Part shown: piece by piece, positions 6,151 to 52,315 of the stretch
How positions within the stretch are numbered: the first letter of the stretch is position 1
How the letters are laid out: each line of letters begins with the position of its first letter
Sequence record: MT129654.1
Length of the DNA: 64,000 nt
Reading direction: 5' to 3' (one strand)
Source of the DNA: Escherichia phage MN04
Position numbers and translations under genes: made by a program
The notes under the pieces: generated by a model
Told to the model about the DNA's origin: nothing
The model's input: only the letters and a program-made list of their open reading frames with translations
Databases searched by the model: none

Positions 6151-6180
6151 GTTTACATACACCATGGATGGTGTTACTAT
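6151..6180 (+). promoter_or_regulatory. early promoter cassette (GTTTAC, TACTAT-like -10, palindrome ACACCATGGATGGTGT in spacer)
   Basis: sigma70-like spacing; shared downstream core CCTATCAACTA. Confidence 0.5.
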
Positions 6181-6562: not shown

Positions 6563-6614
6563 GTATACATCTCCATTAGACATGATATTATAGACCTATC
6601 AACTAATGGAGATG
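6563..6614 (+). promoter_or_regulatory. early promoter cassette with long-range inverted repeat covering the SD
   Basis: GTATAC, 17 nt, TATTAT; arms CATCTCCATTAG 6568-6579 and CTAATGGAGATG 6603-6614. Confidence 0.5.
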
Positions 6615-6617
6615 ATT

Positions 6618-6728
6618 ATGAAAAACTTACTTAAAGCAATTTGGAACATGTTTGTGTTATTGGTTGTATTGAGCATTTTCCCAATAGTTTTTATGATTGA
6701 CCATGTACGTGTATTCTTTAACTTCTGA
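6618..6728 (+). CDS. hypothetical small membrane peptide (36 aa)
   Basis: ATG after GGAG SD; hydrophobic core FVLLVVLSIFPIVFMI; below track cutoff. Confidence 0.25.
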   Translation: MKNLLKAIWNMFVLLVVLSIFPIVFMIDHVRVFFNF

Positions 6729-9900: not shown

Positions 9901-9919
9901 GGGTTTAGTGCAAAAAAGT

Positions 9920-9948
9920 GTTTACATCTGCTTTAAACATGATACTAT
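9920..9948 (+). promoter_or_regulatory. early promoter cassette, repeat copy 1
   Basis: GTTTAC, 17 nt, TACTAT; contains TGCTTTA (MotA-box-like). Confidence 0.5.
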
Positions 9949-9975
9949 AGACCTATCAAATAAATGAACTGAAAC
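9927..9975 (+). repeat. 49-nt direct repeat, copy 1
   Basis: TCTGCTTTAAACATGATACTATAGACCTATCAAATAAATGAACTGAAAC identical to 10271-10319. Confidence 0.8.
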
Positions 9976-10224: not shown

Positions 10225-10263
10225 GTACTTTATTAGAGCTCTTGAAAAAGAGCTCAAAATAAA

Positions 10264-10292
10264 GTTTACTTCTGCTTTAAACATGATACTAT
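10264..10292 (+). promoter_or_regulatory. early promoter cassette, repeat copy 2 (upstream of motA)
   Basis: Near-identical to copy at 9920. Confidence 0.5.
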
Positions 10293-10319
10293 AGACCTAT
10301 CAAATAAATGAACTGAAAC
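10271..10319 (+). repeat. 49-nt direct repeat, copy 2
   Basis: Identical to 9927-9975. Confidence 0.8.
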
Positions 10320-23764: not shown

Positions 23765-23793
23765 GTTTACTTCTTCCAGGGCCATGATATAAT
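23765..23793 (+). promoter_or_regulatory. early promoter of rnh
   Basis: GTTTAC, 17 nt, TATAAT. Confidence 0.6.
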
Positions 23794-23824
23794 AACCTTC
23801 TACACTAATTGGACAGAGGTTCAT

Positions 23825-24772
23825 ATGAACGATTTAGATTTTTTACTTCCTGAAGAAGACCAACAAAAAGATGGATTTTTACTCCTGGATTTCAGCCAAA
23901 TCATTATGGCGGCAGCCTTCCAAGAATTTGGTGAAAACGCTGGATTTCCTAAAGTAACAACAGCAATGCTTCGACATCTCGTCTTGAATTCAATCAAGAA
24001 AAACATTAAAGACTTTAAAAAACAAGGTTACAACCAACTAATCATTTGTGTTGATAACTCTAAATCAGGTTATTGGCGTCGTCGTTATTCTTCTTATTAT
24101 AAGAAAAACCGTGCTAAGGCACGTGACGAATCACCATTTGATTGGGAAGGCTTATTCACTGCAATGCATATTATTGTGGATGAGCTTGAACAAAACATGC
24201 CTTATATTGTTATGAATATCGACACAATCGAGGCCGATGACCATATTGCTGTATTGACTCGCATCCTTACGGCTTTAGGTCATCCTGTTATGATTGGCTC
24301 TTCTGATGGTGACTTTACCCAACTTCATAAATTCCCTGGTGTAAAACAATGGTCTCCAATGCAGAAAAAATTCGTCAAAACAAAATCTGGTGATGCTCTG
24401 CTTGATTGTGTGACCAAGGTTGTTAAAGGTGACCGCAAGGATAACGTTGCAAGTATTAAAGTTCGTGGTGATTATTGGTTGACAATGGTTGAAGGTGAAC
24501 GTACTCCTAGCACTCGTGCTAAGGAACTTGAAGCAATTGCTCTGAATTATTATGACCATGATATAATTAAAACACTTCTTACTGAGGAACAATATGAACG
24601 TTTCTGTGAAAACCAAATCTTAATTGATATGGACTTTATTCCAGATGATATTGTTGCTTTAATTACTGAAAGATATAATACGTATAACAAACCTTCGAAA
24701 TCTAAAGTTTATCCTTATTTCGTTAAATCAGGTTTGTCTAAACTAACTGCTACAGTAGCTGATTTTTATTAA
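23825..24772 (+). CDS. rnh: RNase H (5'-3' exonuclease / flap endonuclease)
   Basis: 315 aa; GYWRRRYSSYYKKNR, EADDHIAVL, SSDGDFTQLHK motifs match T4 RNase H. Confidence 0.9.
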   Translation: MNDLDFLLPEEDQQKDGFLLLDFSQIIMAAAFQEFGENAGFPKVTTAMLRHLVLNSIKKNIKDFKKQGYNQLIICVDNSKSGYWRRRYSSYYKKNRAKARDESPFDWEGLFTAMHIIVDELEQNMPYIVMNIDTIEADDHIAVLTRILTALGHPVMIGSSDGDFTQLHKFPGVKQWSPMQKKFVKTKSGDALLDCVTKVVKGDRKDNVASIKVRGDYWLTMVEGERTPSTRAKELEAIALNYYDHDIIKTLLTEEQYERFCENQILIDMDFIPDDIVALITERYNTYNKPSKSKVYPYFVKSGLSKLTATVADFY

Positions 24773-27849: not shown

Positions 27850-28110
27850 ATGACTAAAGATGATTTCCTGGATGCAGTAGAAAAAGCCAGTGAGAAATTT
27901 GAAGTGATGGGTGTACGAGTTCATAAAGACCGAAATTACGGCCTCGATATCCAAACGTATTCGTTATGGCTTGTAGGCGAACATAGTCTTGTAACCACCT
28001 TAGTTATGGGTGTTGATGCTCAACCCTTACTGGTTAAATTCAGAAGTATGGAAAAAGCTACCAAAGAAATGATTAAACTTGGTAAATGGCTTGATAAAAT
28101 TCAAAAATAA
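27850..28110 (+). CDS. hypothetical protein (86 aa)
   Basis: First ATG in track ORF 27787; overlaps upstream stop. Confidence 0.35.
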   Translation: MTKDDFLDAVEKASEKFEVMGVRVHKDRNYGLDIQTYSLWLVGEHSLVTTLVMGVDAQPLLVKFRSMEKATKEMIKLGKWLDKIQK

Positions 28111-28112
28111 AT

Positions 28113-28148
28113 GTTTACAAGGTCTATAGGCATGATACTATAGACCTA
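28113..28148 (+). promoter_or_regulatory. early promoter cassette with stem-loop around -10
   Basis: GTTTAC, 17 nt, TACTAT; AGGTCTATAG/CTATAGACCT inverted repeat. Confidence 0.5.
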
Positions 28149-28173
28149 TCAACTAACGAGTGAGGAAAATAAA

Positions 28174-28401
28174 ATGGCTAAGGTTAATATTGATATCGTT
28201 GATTTTGAATACACTTACGAAGTTATCCGTAATCGTTATCCTTCTTTGACTATGACTTATATCAAAGACACACAATTCTGTAGTATGCAAATTGAAGTCC
28301 AAGGTCCTCTTGAAGACCTTACCCGCTTTATGGCTGATGAATATTGCGATGGTATGCATGCTGAAGACGCTGAATTTTATATGGGCTTAATTCAAAAATA
28401 A
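28174..28401 (+). CDS. hypothetical protein (75 aa)
   Basis: ATG after GAGGAAAATAAA SD; own promoter cassette. Confidence 0.4.
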
Positions 28402-28403
28402 GT

Positions 28404-28440
28404 GTTTACCTAAGGCTATGGTAGTGATACTATAGCCTTA
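28404..28440 (+). promoter_or_regulatory. early promoter cassette with stem-loop around -10
   Basis: GTTTAC, 17 nt, ATACTA; AAGGCTAT/ATAGCCTT inverted repeat. Confidence 0.5.
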
Positions 28441-28459
28441 TCAATTTGAGGAGAATAAA

Positions 28460-28699
28460 ATGAAATTACAACGTGAATCAATTAAAGATTCTGAAGTTAA
28501 AGGCAAATGGTACTTCACAATCCAAGGTAACAATCCGGAAGCTCTGGAAAAAGCCGAACAAGCTTTGTGTGAAATGGGCTGGAAAGATGAGTGTGATGGA
28601 TGTCCTCTTTATGAAGATGGTAGCTCATCTGGTTTCTGGATTCACCATTCCGATGTTGATCAATTTAAAGCTGACTGGAAAGTCGCTAAGAAAGCATGA
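28460..28699 (+). CDS. hypothetical protein (79 aa)
   Basis: ATG after GAGGAGAATAAA SD; own promoter cassette. Confidence 0.4.
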   Translation: MKLQRESIKDSEVKGKWYFTIQGNNPEALEKAEQALCEMGWKDECDGCPLYEDGSSSGFWIHHSDVDQFKADWKVAKKA

Positions 28700-35251: not shown

Positions 35252-36396
35252 TTGAATTATATGATAACTTGATGACTTTGGTTAAAAACTCGACTAAATC
35301 TAAGTTCTTCTTTAAAGACTTCCAGAGTGCTCTAGGAGTCAACTATCGCATCTTTAGTTATAACTATGCATCGTACAGCGATTGGTTGGAAGACGGCGCG
35401 CTAGAGTGCCGAGGCATTATGTTTGAAATGGACGAGAACGGTCCTGTACGTATCGCTGCTCGTCCTATGCAAAAGTTCTTTAATCTCGATGAAAATCCAT
35501 TGACTATTGGTTTGGATTTATCACAAGAAAATATCGACCTCGTAATGGCTAAGGAAGATGGTTCCTTGATTTCTACTTTCATGGACAGACAATATCTTTC
35601 TGTTAAATCTAAAGGCTCTATCCATTCGTCGATGGTACATGATTCTTTACGTTTCCTTCGACTCCCTGAAAACGAGGCCTTCGCTGCTCGTTTAGAAGAA
35701 ATTACTAAAGCAGGCTATACATGTAACCTCGAGTATGTTTCGCCTACTAACCGTATTGTGCTGGCTTACCAAGAAACAAACCTTATCTTACTGAACGTTC
35801 GTAATAACGAAACGGGTGAGTATATCCCTTACGCTGAACTGTTTAAAGATGGCGCTCTGCGTAAGCATTTGGTTAAAAGCTATGAACTCGCCGAAGGTGA
35901 TTTTGTTGACAATATCCGTAAACAAGAGGGTATTGAAGGCTTTATCTTTGTACTTAAAGATGGCACGTTCTTTAAACTCAAAACCGCTTGGTATAGCGCA
36001 CTGCATCATACCAAAGATTCCATTAACAATAACGAACGTTTATTTGAAGTTGTAGTGGCTGGTGGAACCGATGACCTCCGAGGTTTGTTCAGCACTGATT
36101 CATTTGCTATCGAGAAAATCAATGCATTTGAACGTACCCATTTAGACTACTTAGAACAGTCCTTGGCTTTGTTAGAAGCAGCATATTCCCAGCTCAAAGG
36201 CCGCGACCGTAAAGACTACGCTGTTACTGGTCAGTTAATCCTCAAAGACTTCCCAGGGCTGTTCTCTATTCTTATGCAGGCGTACGTAGACGGTATTAAT
36301 TATGATACGGTCGTGGACCAGATTAACTCTGTGTTCTTGAAAAATCATAAGGCCCAAATCCCTGAAAAATATTTGAAAGAAATTGTAATAGAGTAG
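35248..36396 (+). CDS. rnlA: RNA ligase 1 (gp63)
   Basis: 382 aa; YRIFSYNYASYSDWLEDGALECRGIMFEMDENGPVRIAARPMQKFFNL matches T4 Rnl1. Confidence 0.9.
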   Translation: MIELYDNLMTLVKNSTKSKFFFKDFQSALGVNYRIFSYNYASYSDWLEDGALECRGIMFEMDENGPVRIAARPMQKFFNLDENPLTIGLDLSQENIDLVMAKEDGSLISTFMDRQYLSVKSKGSIHSSMVHDSLRFLRLPENEAFAARLEEITKAGYTCNLEYVSPTNRIVLAYQETNLILLNVRNNETGEYIPYAELFKDGALRKHLVKSYELAEGDFVDNIRKQEGIEGFIFVLKDGTFFKLKTAWYSALHHTKDSINNNERLFEVVVAGGTDDLRGLFSTDSFAIEKINAFERTHLDYLEQSLALLEAAYSQLKGRDRKDYAVTGQLILKDFPGLFSILMQAYVDGINYDTVVDQINSVFLKNHKAQIPEKYLKEIVIE

Positions 36397-36447
36397 TTTA
36401 CATCTCCTCATGATGTGTTAGTATAGACTTACCAACTAATGAGGAGA
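36396..36447 (+). promoter_or_regulatory. early promoter cassette of alc with SD-covering inverted repeat
   Basis: GTTTAC, 17 nt, TAGTAT; arms TCTCCTCAT 36403-36411 and ATGAGGAGA 36439-36447. Confidence 0.5.
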
Positions 36448-36454
36448 AAACAAA

Positions 36455-36955
36455 ATGAATATGCAAATGATTACCAACGAAATGGTTGTTAAAGCTTTTG
36501 GTGACTCTACTGACGGTATCCAAGTTTTTAAAGGTTCTCGTGCAGTAGGTTATCTAACCGATCTTCGTGTTACTTTAGCTAAAAATGCTAAAAAGAAAAT
36601 TAAGCAAAAAGAATACTCTACCCGTTATGCAGAAGAAAAGCGTGAAGCCATGCCCGAAGCTGTTAACTCTATGGTTGAGTTTCTCCAAAACAACCTTTCT
36701 AAGTATGATGCTGAGGTATTCATTAATATTAGCCAACCTAATGTCAAAATCGCAGGAATCACTTTCTATTTGATTTGCGACCCATTAAGCGATAAGTTTA
36801 ATCGCCTTGGCATTTCGAGCCCTTACCATACCGCTGAAGAATTGTGCGTGATGTTCGAAACGTATAAAATCCAGTGTGAAAACCCTAAAACGGTTCTTAT
36901 CAACTCCCTGTCACGTGATGACATCATCGAGATTATTACTAAATGTCTAAATTAA
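36455..36955 (+). CDS. alc: probable Alc (host transcription unfolding/termination factor)
   Basis: 166 aa (T4 Alc 167 aa); located between rnlA and spanin genes as in T4; sequence not independently verified. Confidence 0.5.
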   Translation: MNMQMITNEMVVKAFGDSTDGIQVFKGSRAVGYLTDLRVTLAKNAKKKIKQKEYSTRYAEEKREAMPEAVNSMVEFLQNNLSKYDAEVFINISQPNVKIAGITFYLICDPLSDKFNRLGISSPYHTAEELCVMFETYKIQCENPKTVLINSLSRDDIIEIITKCLN

Positions 36956-40127: not shown

Positions 40128-40165
40128 GTTTACATCATGGTAGGACTGTGGTATAGTAGTCCTAC
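40128..40165 (+). promoter_or_regulatory. early promoter cassette with stem-loop
   Basis: GTTTAC, 17 nt, GTATAG; GGTAGGACT/AGTCCTACC inverted repeat. Confidence 0.5.
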
Positions 40166-40187
40166 CGAAACAAATGAGGAAATCGAA

Positions 40188-43345: not shown

Positions 43346-43350
43346 GTTAT

Positions 43351-43378
43351 GGGACTCTTCGGAGTCCCATTTTTGTTT
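43351..43378 (+). terminator. rho-independent terminator
   Basis: GGGACTC-TTCG-GAGTCCC hairpin + ATTTTTGTTT. Confidence 0.65.
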
Positions 43379-43396
43379 CTAAATCTTTAAAAAAGG

Positions 43397-43460
43397 GTAT
43401 ACATCTCCAGTAGGCATGATACTATAGACATGTACCAAATAATACGAAAACAAACTGGAG
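43397..43460 (+). promoter_or_regulatory. early promoter cassette with SD-covering inverted repeat
   Basis: GTATAC, 17 nt, TACTAT; arms CTCCAGT 43405-43411 and ACTGGAG 43454-43460. Confidence 0.5.
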
Positions 43461-43470
43461 AATAAAATGA
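43431..43470 (+). repeat. 40-nt direct repeat (leader/RBS cassette), copy 1
   Basis: TGTACCAAATAATACGAAAACAAACTGGAGAATAAAATGA identical to 43837-43876. Confidence 0.8.
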
Positions 43471-43799
43471 AAACTGTAAACCTGAATGCATCTGTTAAAG
43501 CTAAATGTTTCAACGGTGAATATCAAGAAACCATGTGGGTCCTGACTGCAGTTGAAGGTGATATCATCGAAGTTGAAACAACTGAAGGTATGGGTACTGA
43601 TTTCACATTTACCATCGAGCTTCACAACTTCTTTACAGGTTGGATTTATGAACTGAAAACTGTAATTACTGGTCGTATTGAAGAAAACAAAATTGGTGAA
43701 TTCTATTACGTTAATGCCCGTACACGTGCTGAACGTCTGATTGCTCAGATGAAAAAAGTTGGTAAACTTGATATGAAAAATTGGAATGTTGTGAAATAA
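43467..43799 (+). CDS. hypothetical protein (110 aa)
   Basis: ATG after CTGGAGAATAAA cassette, copy 1 of 40-nt repeat. Confidence 0.4.
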   Translation: MKTVNLNASVKAKCFNGEYQETMWVLTAVEGDIIEVETTEGMGTDFTFTIELHNFFTGWIYELKTVITGRIEENKIGEFYYVNARTRAERLIAQMKKVGKLDMKNWNVVK

Positions 43800-43802
43800 A
43801 TG

Positions 43803-43842
43803 TTTTACTTTGGTACAGGTTGTGTTATTATAGACCTGTACC
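43803..43842 (+). promoter_or_regulatory. early promoter cassette with stem-loop
   Basis: TTTTAC, 17 nt, TATTAT; GGTACAGGT/ACCTGTACC inverted repeat. Confidence 0.45.
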
Positions 43843-43876
43843 AAATAATACGAAAACAAACTGGAGAATAAAATGA
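43837..43876 (+). repeat. 40-nt direct repeat (leader/RBS cassette), copy 2
   Basis: Identical to 43431-43470. Confidence 0.8.
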
Positions 43877-52286: not shown

Positions 52287-52315
52287 TTTACAACACCACA
52301 AGGATGTGGTACTAT
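52286..52315 (+). promoter_or_regulatory. early promoter cassette
   Basis: GTTTAC, 17 nt, GTACTA; CCACA/TGTGG inverted repeat in spacer. Confidence 0.45.

Follow-up and report, generated by a model that had tools for sequence, protein, structure and literature searches.

The DNA analyzed here, 64,000 nucleotides of Escherichia phage MN04 (MT129654.1; "the window" below), belongs to a JS98-like phage of the genus Dhakavirus, a myovirus of the T4 type, and the early genes of the window are read on the + strand. At three of these genes a segment of the early promoter can pair with the Shine-Dalgarno (SD) sequence of the gene that the promoter serves, and these sites are the subject of this report. 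The first gene is alc (36455-36955, + strand, ATG at 36455), encoding a 166-residue inhibitor of host transcription; the alc region is 95% identical to that of Escherichia phage Esco_phi_B-01 and 92% identical to that of IME341. The second is open reading frame (ORF) 6618 (6618-6728, + strand), a homolog of T4 ndd.4 (61% identity) for which the ATG at 6618 is the likely start. The third is ORF 43467 (43467-43799, + strand, ATG at 43467), a homolog of T4 30.8 (78%).

Early promoters with an arm complementary to the Shine-Dalgarno sequence

The alc early promoter (36396-36424, + strand) has the -35 hexamer GTTTAC (36396-36401), a 17-bp spacer, a TGn element and the -10 hexamer TAGTAT (36419-36424). 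Its -35 hexamer overlaps the stop codon of rnlA (TAG, 36394-36396), and the RNA that it directs is predicted to start at about 36431. Within the spacer lies the anti-SD-like segment TCTCCTCAT (36403-36411), missing from the predicted proximal transcript, which pairs over 9 bp, with a 27-nt loop, with ATGAGGAGA (36439-36447); the latter includes the SD GGAG (36443-36446). At ORF 6618 the promoter (6563-6591, + strand) has -35 GTATAC (6563-6568), a 17-bp spacer and -10 TATTAT (6586-6591), with a predicted start at about 6598. Its 5' arm, CATCTCCATTAG (6568-6579), begins on the last base of the -35 hexamer and forms 12 bp with CTAATGGAGATG (6603-6614), within which fall both the SD GGAG (6608-6611) and an upstream in-frame ATG (6606). 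The promoter of the 30.8 homolog (43397-43425, + strand) has -35 GTATAC (43397-43402), a 17-bp spacer and -10 TACTAT (43420-43425), and its predicted start is at about 43432. Here TCTCCAGT (43404-43411) forms 8 bp with ACTGGAGA (43454-43461), which includes the SD GGAG (43457-43460). The initial annotation had given the alc and ORF 6618 repeats with exactly these coordinates; the third repeat, reported as 7 bp, is also present but is one pair longer.

The three sites have much in common. In each, as had been claimed, the 5' arm sits between the -35 hexamer and the TGn-extended -10, and the 3' arm covers the SD, whose GGAG stands 5-8 nt ahead of the ATG. The 5' arms carry the anti-SD core CTCC or CCTC, the loops are 23-42 nt long, and the promoters share the form (G)T(T/A)TACATCTCC...TG-TA(G/T/C)TAT-AGAC. 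T4 early promoters have an UP/-35/TGn/-10 architecture (PMC2988021), and the promoters described here match it. Since a sigma-70 start is expected 5-9 nt beyond the -10 hexamer, the 5' arms are upstream of the predicted starts, and the predicted proximal leaders are 20-36 nt long. This placement agrees with the earlier claim that RNA from the embedded promoter lacks the 5' arm.

Is such complementarity more than expected by chance? With a hidden Markov model trained on these promoters, nhmmer identified 14 early promoters on the + strand of the window; a fifteenth lies at 40128. The 15 have the consensus GTTTAC-N17-TAyTAT with TGn, an AT-rich upstream region and, downstream, an SD and start codon. 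(A looser pattern, TACATCTCC N12-17 TATAG, was tried against IMG/VR and rejected, as nearly all the contigs that it matched were unrelated.) For the 14 promoters, the longest complements between the -35 hexamer plus spacer and the segment from behind the -10 to ATG+3 were 12, 12, 9, 8, 8, 6, 6, 6... bp. When promoters were instead combined with the leaders of other promoters, the mean was 4.4 bp, and none of 20,000 permutations matched the observed mean (p<5e-5). Perfect inverted repeats of at least 9 bp with a 3-45 nt loop point the same way. The whole window has 20 of these, as against 11.2 +/- 3.0 in block shuffles, and six of the 20, including both 12-bp repeats of the window, begin in the -35 to -10 intervals of these 15 promoters, together 0.7% of the window. 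A 5' arm is situated in the spacer at 8-9 of the 15. Finally, the energies of the duplexes between promoter and translation initiation region (TIR) are bimodal among 77 distinct promoters: 20 are at or below -12 kcal/mol, compared with 4.3% of cross pairs, so that the SD-pairing promoters form a distinct class. Complementarity between spacer and SD is thus beyond chance. A search of the whole window against Rfam gave no match at the gathering score.

The pairing has a large predicted effect on SD accessibility. The minimum free energy (MFE) of the read-through RNA, that is, RNA entering from upstream of the promoter, is -17.4 kcal/mol for alc (z -2.4), -22.5 kcal/mol for ORF 6618 (z -5.5) and -15.0 kcal/mol for the 30.8 homolog (z -2.2), whereas the proximal leaders fold with 0 to -1.6 kcal/mol. 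Given 60 or 200 nt of upstream sequence, the predicted probability of an unpaired SD drops from 0.78 in the proximal RNA to 0.000-0.001 in the read-through RNA at alc, from 0.49 to 0.000 at ORF 6618, and from 0.69 to 0.003-0.006 at the 30.8 homolog. The prior claim that read-through RNA is able to bury the SD is borne out by these predictions. At five other early promoters no consistent change of SD accessibility with upstream context was seen.

One gene of the window gave a different kind of result. For the gene at 28174 (27949-28214), folding with 200 nt of context gives the SD an unpaired probability of 0.003, its predicted partner being in the coding sequence of the preceding ORF, but with 60 nt of context the SD is free; this may be an artefact of folding long inputs.

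Conservation of the pairing

In T4 (NC_000866) the spacer can pair with the SD at all three orthologs, alc, ndd.4 and 30.8, with sequences and spacer positions that differ from those of the window. The T4 arms are thus separate solutions for pairing the same SD. At T4 alc the pairing is AAGUCC(C)UCGUGUUGUGUUA.../...AUAACAUGAGGACUU, also written AAGUCC(C)UCGUG.../...CAUGAGGACUU, with the 5' arm AAGTCCCTCGTG, and the MFE of the region is -29.5 kcal/mol. At T4 ndd.4 it is CUGUUCUUCCGUGGU/ACUAUGGAGGAACAG, a duplex of -23.4 kcal/mol with three G.U pairs, and at T4 30.8 it is UUCCUUUGU/ACAAAGGAG.

A broader comparison was made for alc, with leaders gathered from IMG/VR and INPHARED and the 18 nt that follow GTTTAC scored for complementarity to the 24 nt that precede the ATG. 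Twelve lineages have a perfect complement: Dhaka-, Tequatro-, Kanagawa-, Winkler-, Moon- and Jiaodavirus, plus six IMG/VR lineages. The arms are TCTCCTCAT/ATGAGGAGA in Dhakavirus, TCCTCATTTCGTT/AACGAAATGAGGA in Winklervirus, TCTCCATTTGGTT/AACCAAATGGAGA in Moonvirus, ATCCTCATCAG/CTGATGAGGAT in Jiaodavirus, TCTCCTCAG/CTGAGGAGA in L151, ATCCTCATTTTGTTG/CAACAAAATGAGGAT in L141, ATCTCCGTTT/AAACGGAGAT in L142 and AACCTCTCATTTT/AAAATGAGAGGTT in L152; the remaining lineages are Kanagawavirus, L140, L155 and T4. A lineage's own arms pair over 10.9 bp on average (-20.3 kcal/mol), as against 6.1 bp (-11.6 kcal/mol) for arms taken from different lineages, and none of 100,000 permutations reached the observed values (p<1e-5). 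Since MAFFT, applied to the whole set of 14 alc leaders, does not keep the 3' arms in register across lineages, column covariation was scored on a six-lineage subset, the full set being covered by the alignment-free permutation. In the six-lineage alignment 84% of the cells are paired, with one row misaligned by a column, and five of 15 pairs have changed on both sides; one pair occurs as GC, CG, UA and GU. Shuffled controls matched this in 1-2 of 500 trials, and controls in which the arms were slid had at most 56% of cells paired.

The other two genes show the same tendency. Among 30.8 orthologs, 5' arms at no fewer than four positions in the spacer pair with the same SD. Other Dhakaviruses have the 30.8 5' arm TCTCCGGT where the window has TCTCCAGT, which turns an A-U pair into G.U, so that pairing is kept in the sense-strand RNA only. 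For ndd.4 the comparison is of two lineages, as a DenB-anchored search gave Dhaka-type and T4-type loci only. Taken together, the sequence comparisons support the view that the pairing has been maintained by compensatory change. How the sites are built, the predicted folding and the conservation of pairing in evolution are all well supported.

Could the repeats act as DNA, for instance as cruciforms or single-strand hairpins that affect promoter activity, replication or recombination, or be chance complements of anti-SD-like and SD sequences? Most of the stems are pure Watson-Crick and as stable on one strand as on the other, and spacers with ATCTCC pair generically with any GGAG SD (mean -10.8 kcal/mol). 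Folding of sense and antisense strands likewise revealed no general strand preference (mean difference 0.3 kcal/mol, Wilcoxon p=0.43). That said, the permutation and enrichment tests exclude chance, the extensions past the CTCC/GGAG core are gene-specific and covary, and the T4 stems need G.U pairs that are possible only in sense-strand RNA. The G.U pairs at alc and ndd.4 in T4 are consistent with RNA of the sense strand, as is the A-to-G change at 30.8 in Dhakavirus, although it is only the T4 stems and this one Dhakavirus variant that favor that strand. Moreover, loops of 23-42 bp disfavor cruciform extrusion. We regard this explanation as scarcely credible.

A proposed tie between translation and the early promoter, and its alternatives

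We propose that the three genes work as follows. The spacer just past the -35 hexamer carries the anti-SD-like ..TCTCC.. plus a few gene-specific bases. RNA from the gene's own promoter, starting some 7 nt past the -10, would be without this segment, leaving the leader unstructured and the SD free. RNA derived from upstream would include it, and the resulting 8-12 bp stem with the SD would block 30S binding. The long RNA could come from rnlA/nrd transcripts in the case of alc, from the transcript of promoter P6134 in that of ORF 6618, and from leakage through a terminator at 43349 in that of the 30.8 homolog. Translation would in this way be tied to the gene's own early promoter and would end when early promoters are shut off, despite middle and late transcription. 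The start sites are inferred, and so are the presence and quantity of read-through RNA and the consequence for translation. On balance, alc and the ndd.4 and 30.8 homologs are probably translated from RNA of their own promoters and have an occluded SD in read-through RNA.

How plausible is the read-through RNA? Between rnlA and alc no terminator is predicted, and upstream of nrdA there are a match to a MotA-type middle promoter (31307) and a late TATAAATA (31291). ORF 6618 is preceded at a distance of 430 nt by the early promoter P6134, and the interval contains no predicted terminator. Directly upstream of the 30.8 promoter, however, is an intrinsic terminator with a 9-bp stem and a T-run (about 43349-43375, + strand), and only leak-through RNA is therefore concerned at this site.

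The same terminator offers a second way of burying the TIR of the 30.8 homolog in leak-through RNA. Its T-run and tail, CATTTTTGTTTCT (43366-43395), are complementary to the TIR GGAGAATAAAATG (43454-43469), with a duplex energy of -9.8 kcal/mol. In related phages RNAfold favors pairing between the terminator tail and the 30.8 TIR, and the T4-type tail TTTTTTATTTTCC fits even better.

Several observations weigh against the proposal of SD occlusion in read-through RNA. The terminator ahead of the third site limits read-through there, and the nearest source of read-through for ORF 6618 is itself an early promoter, so that temporal gating is not obvious. At alc the hairpin may be opened in part by a ribosome that ends at the stop codon of rnlA, which precedes the 5' arm by 7 nt. 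Most stems, being pure Watson-Crick, are as stable on the antisense strand or in DNA as in the mRNA. SD pairing is absent from the alc of Mosigvirus, L148/L153, L150 and Lazarusvirus. As the leaders measure only 20-36 nt, a 3' arm located anywhere within them is fairly likely to touch the SD. Finally, among the early promoters of the window, embedded hairpins that leave the SD free are at least as numerous as those that pair with it.

The last point deserves attention, for the three SD-pairing sites are one subclass of a wider group of promoter-embedded stem-loops (PeSL). Under the name promoter-early stem-loops, Arbiol 2010 and Comeau 2014 describe stem-loops between the -35 and -10 hexamers, or over the -10, of T4-type early promoters, one of them with terminator-like activity. 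Other early promoters of the window have equally good hairpins with the 5' arm in the spacer and the 3' arm directly after the -10, where it is 19-41 nt ahead of the ATG and leaves the SD free. The promoter of the 30.7 homolog (ATG 43873) has a perfect 12-bp example, TTTGGTACAGGT (43809-43820) with ACCTGTACCAAA (43834-43845), which encloses the -10, is joint longest among the inverted repeats of the window, and has a T4 counterpart, GGTACAGG/CCTGTACC. Further examples are TAAGGCTAT (28411-28419) with ATAGCCTTA (28432-28440), AGGTCTATAG (28120-28129) with CTATAGACCT (28138-28147), and, at the cd.3-type promoter at 40128, GGTAGGACT (40139-40147) with AGTCCTACC (40158-40166); shorter ones occur at 12655-12660/12675-12680 and 7496-7501/7516-7521. 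Two more early promoters have palindromes inside the spacer, ACACCAT-GG-ATGGTGT (6159-6174) and ACCACA-AGGA-TGTGGT (52295-52310).

These SD-free hairpins are also under selection. The cd.3-type hairpin covaries, being GGTAGGACT/AGTCCTACC in the window, GGTAGAG/CTCTACC at T4 Pe133295 and GGTGGAGTT/AACTCTACC in L008. In some alc lineages an SD-free hairpin stands in place of the SD-pairing one: the alc of Mosigvirus p000v and L008 has an intraspacer palindrome, and the alc promoter of L148/L153 has the arms GGTAGGACT/AGTCCTACC found at the cd.3-type promoter of the window. Since SD-free hairpins covary and replace SD pairing in some alc genes, promoter hairpins must have a selected role that is independent of the SD. 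The association with gene shuffling that is typical of PeSL is seen here as well, both in these shared arms and in two other cases. The 30.8 and 30.7 homologs have a near-identical 5' leader, GTACCAAATAATACGAAAACAAACTGGAGAATAAAATG (43431-43466 and 43838-43872), which is paired differently, by its SD in the former and by its first 12 nt in the latter. In phage IME341 (L004/L137) the 30.8-type promoter and leader form a cassette ahead of an unrelated ORF (L004 15162).

It could accordingly be argued that all of these are generic PeSL, that selection favors any hairpin lying in or near a mobile cassette's early promoter, and that overlap with the SD is incidental to short leaders. On read-through RNA the hairpin might then attenuate transcription, impede 3'-exonucleases or cover AU-rich RNase E sites; it might also be a recombination site. 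The window hairpins that are equal in length to the SD-pairing ones, avoid the SD and yet covary, such as the cd.3-type one, are what this explanation would lead one to expect, as are the IME341 cassette and the alc lineages with SD-free hairpins. It sits less well with other features. No U-tract follows the three hairpins or the SD-free ones. Loops of 23-42 nt are poor material for selection on stability alone, a short-loop hairpin being more stable, and yet the SD is repeatedly the partner. In 30.8 and ndd.4 one and the same SD is reached from different parts of the spacer, the anti-SD core recurs in the 5' arms, and the duplex energies set the SD-pairing promoters apart. For these reasons we favor SD occlusion and consider the generic explanation unlikely for the three sites. 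As many PeSL stems leave the SD untouched, SD occlusion would nevertheless be only part of the story. A role of the three hairpins as intrinsic terminators was considered separately and rejected: the sequence after the 3' arms is A-rich, with no U-tract, the loops are long, and the terminator scan called none of them.

For alc alone, translational coupling must also be considered. On read-through RNA from rnlA into alc, a ribosome ending at the rnlA stop might melt the base of the stem and free the SD for a short time, so that Alc would be made in proportion to rnlA translation. In almost every alc lineage the rnlA stop precedes the 5' arm by 4-12 nt, a closeness that compact gene packing would also explain, and the alc stem of the window is short for its loop. 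However, judging by its footprint, a ribosome at the stop codon should extend over no more than the first 1-3 pairs, T4 and several other lineages have stems of 13-20 bp, and at the other two sites the stop codons are 59 and 96 nt upstream. Coupling is on this evidence distinctly improbable as the explanation for the alc hairpin.

A further alternative involves the phage endoribonuclease RegB. Pairing might shield the GGAG of the SD from RegB in the long RNA, or confine inactivation by RegB to the proximal RNA, mRNA decay being then the main effect. All three sites have GGAG in the SD, RegB is known to be blocked by RNA secondary structure, and the site of the 30.8 homolog, GGAGAATAAAA, is a perfect match to the strong consensus GG*AGRAYARAA. 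The alc and ORF 6618 sites, on the other hand, fall outside the extended consensus, and a protected but occluded SD would still be untranslatable. The hairpin is moreover kept where there is no GGAG to protect, in T4 alc (GAGGAC), Kanagawavirus (GGGGA) and L152 (GAGAGG), which means that RegB protection is not general, although it is plausible for 30.8. As an account of the three sites together we give it slightly less credence than we give coupling at alc. It is of note that GGAGAATAAAATG, a perfect RegB strong consensus, occurs at three early-gene TIRs of the window (43457-43467, 43863-43873 and 28450-28460).

Relation to known hairpins and other observations

The initial annotation had likened the three sites to T4 e and soc, a comparison that is correct according to reviews (PMC3014915, PMC2988022). 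In T4 e, soc, 49 and I-TevI the SD or AUG is buried in a long RNA and an embedded promoter gives a translatable one (PMC3014915, PMC2988022), and for e and I-TevI the principle is established experimentally (PMC3014915, PMC2988022). Hairpins that sequester the ribosome-binding site (RBS) are also found at I-TevII, I-TevIII, segB and Aeh1 mobE (PMC2988022). The sites described here resemble the e/soc/49/I-TevI class in that the helix includes the SD in every case, with a predicted unpaired probability of at most 0.006 in read-through RNA, and in that the 5' strand of this helix precedes the predicted start of the embedded promoter. They differ in timing. In the known cases the promoters are late (TATAAATA, gp55) and so are the genes, and Edgell et al. 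2010 state that the genes regulated by such hairpins are all late (PMC2988022). Within the three hairpins of the window there is no TATAAATA; the embedded promoters are of the sigma-70 early type and the genes are early, alc being known to give an early product. A further difference from e and soc is that the 5' strand is in the spacer between the -35 and -10 hexamers. The predicted logic is reversed, translation being expected only during the early burst.

With PeSL the sites share the strong sigma-70-like early promoter, the AT-rich upstream region, the SD and start codon at the 3' end, and the repeated occurrence of cassettes before small ORFs with ties to gene shuffling. The stems described as PeSL differ in being local, often GGGG..CCCC, and in being read as terminators, attenuators or recombination sites, whereas the hairpins here have long loops and no U-tract. 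The passages of Arbiol 2010 and Comeau 2014 that were covered make no mention of pairing between spacer and SD or of a consequence for translation. The likeness to RegB targets consists in the GGAG of early-gene SDs followed by an A-rich tract, and in the fit of the 30.8 site to the consensus. RegB, however, acts in trans on single-stranded sites, while here we are dealing with a hairpin in cis that is kept even where the SD lacks GGAG.

We found no RBS hairpin embedded in an early promoter described in the accessible literature, a scope that does not take in older T4 work (Liebig & Rueger 1989; the Mosig laboratory) or Miller et al. 2003, and none of alc, 30.8 and ndd.4 is treated specifically in a T4 omics paper. 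The early-gene, early-promoter arrangement would extend a mechanism known hitherto from late T4 genes alone. More tentatively, it might be a gate used throughout the Straboviridae, in which an anti-SD in the spacer limits alc, ndd.4, 30.8, T4 alt.-3 and probably more genes to their own immediate-early transcripts; this wider proposal is possible but somewhat doubtful.

If the mechanism operates as proposed, synthesis from the gated genes would end with early-promoter shut-off, independently of RegB and despite middle and late transcription. Reviewers regard the sharp end of T4 early protein synthesis (early-promoter shut-off plus RegB) as incompletely understood, and the hairpins would help to explain so abrupt a stop, as a third, hard-wired layer in cis in the timing of T4 expression. 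They would mirror the hairpins of late genes, breaking the rule that RBS hairpins belong to late genes only, and would give a function to part of the PeSL stem-loops. As the structure at alc is kept across at least 12 lineages, and the genetics exist, T4 alc is a ready test case. An anti-SD placed in a promoter spacer could also be a compact synthetic part that insulates genes from upstream transcription.

Three other loci remain to be described. Upstream of T4 alt.-3 (T4 123065; locus L134, about 3093) there is a second copy of the alc promoter, with the spacer AAGTCCCTCGTGTTGTGT, which pairs with the alt.-3 SD by CCUCGUG/CAUGAGG only; the alt.-3 promoter of the window (52269) has an intraspacer palindrome instead of SD pairing. 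Near-identical early-promoter cassettes, 344 bp apart, precede ORF 9997 (9903-9967) and motA (10247-10311). Their spacers contain TGCTTTA, the core of the MotA box, but these are not middle promoters, the distance to the -10 being 7-9 bp and not 12 +/- 1. At rnh (23765-23830) the -10 and discriminator of the early promoter, ..TATAATAACCTT, are complementary to the TIR AGAGGTTCATATG, and the duplex, at -10.9 kcal/mol, surpasses 96% of the cross pairs. The rnh site is a weaker fourth candidate, with its 5' arm between the -10 and +1, a layout similar to that at alc in L146, L149 and L157.

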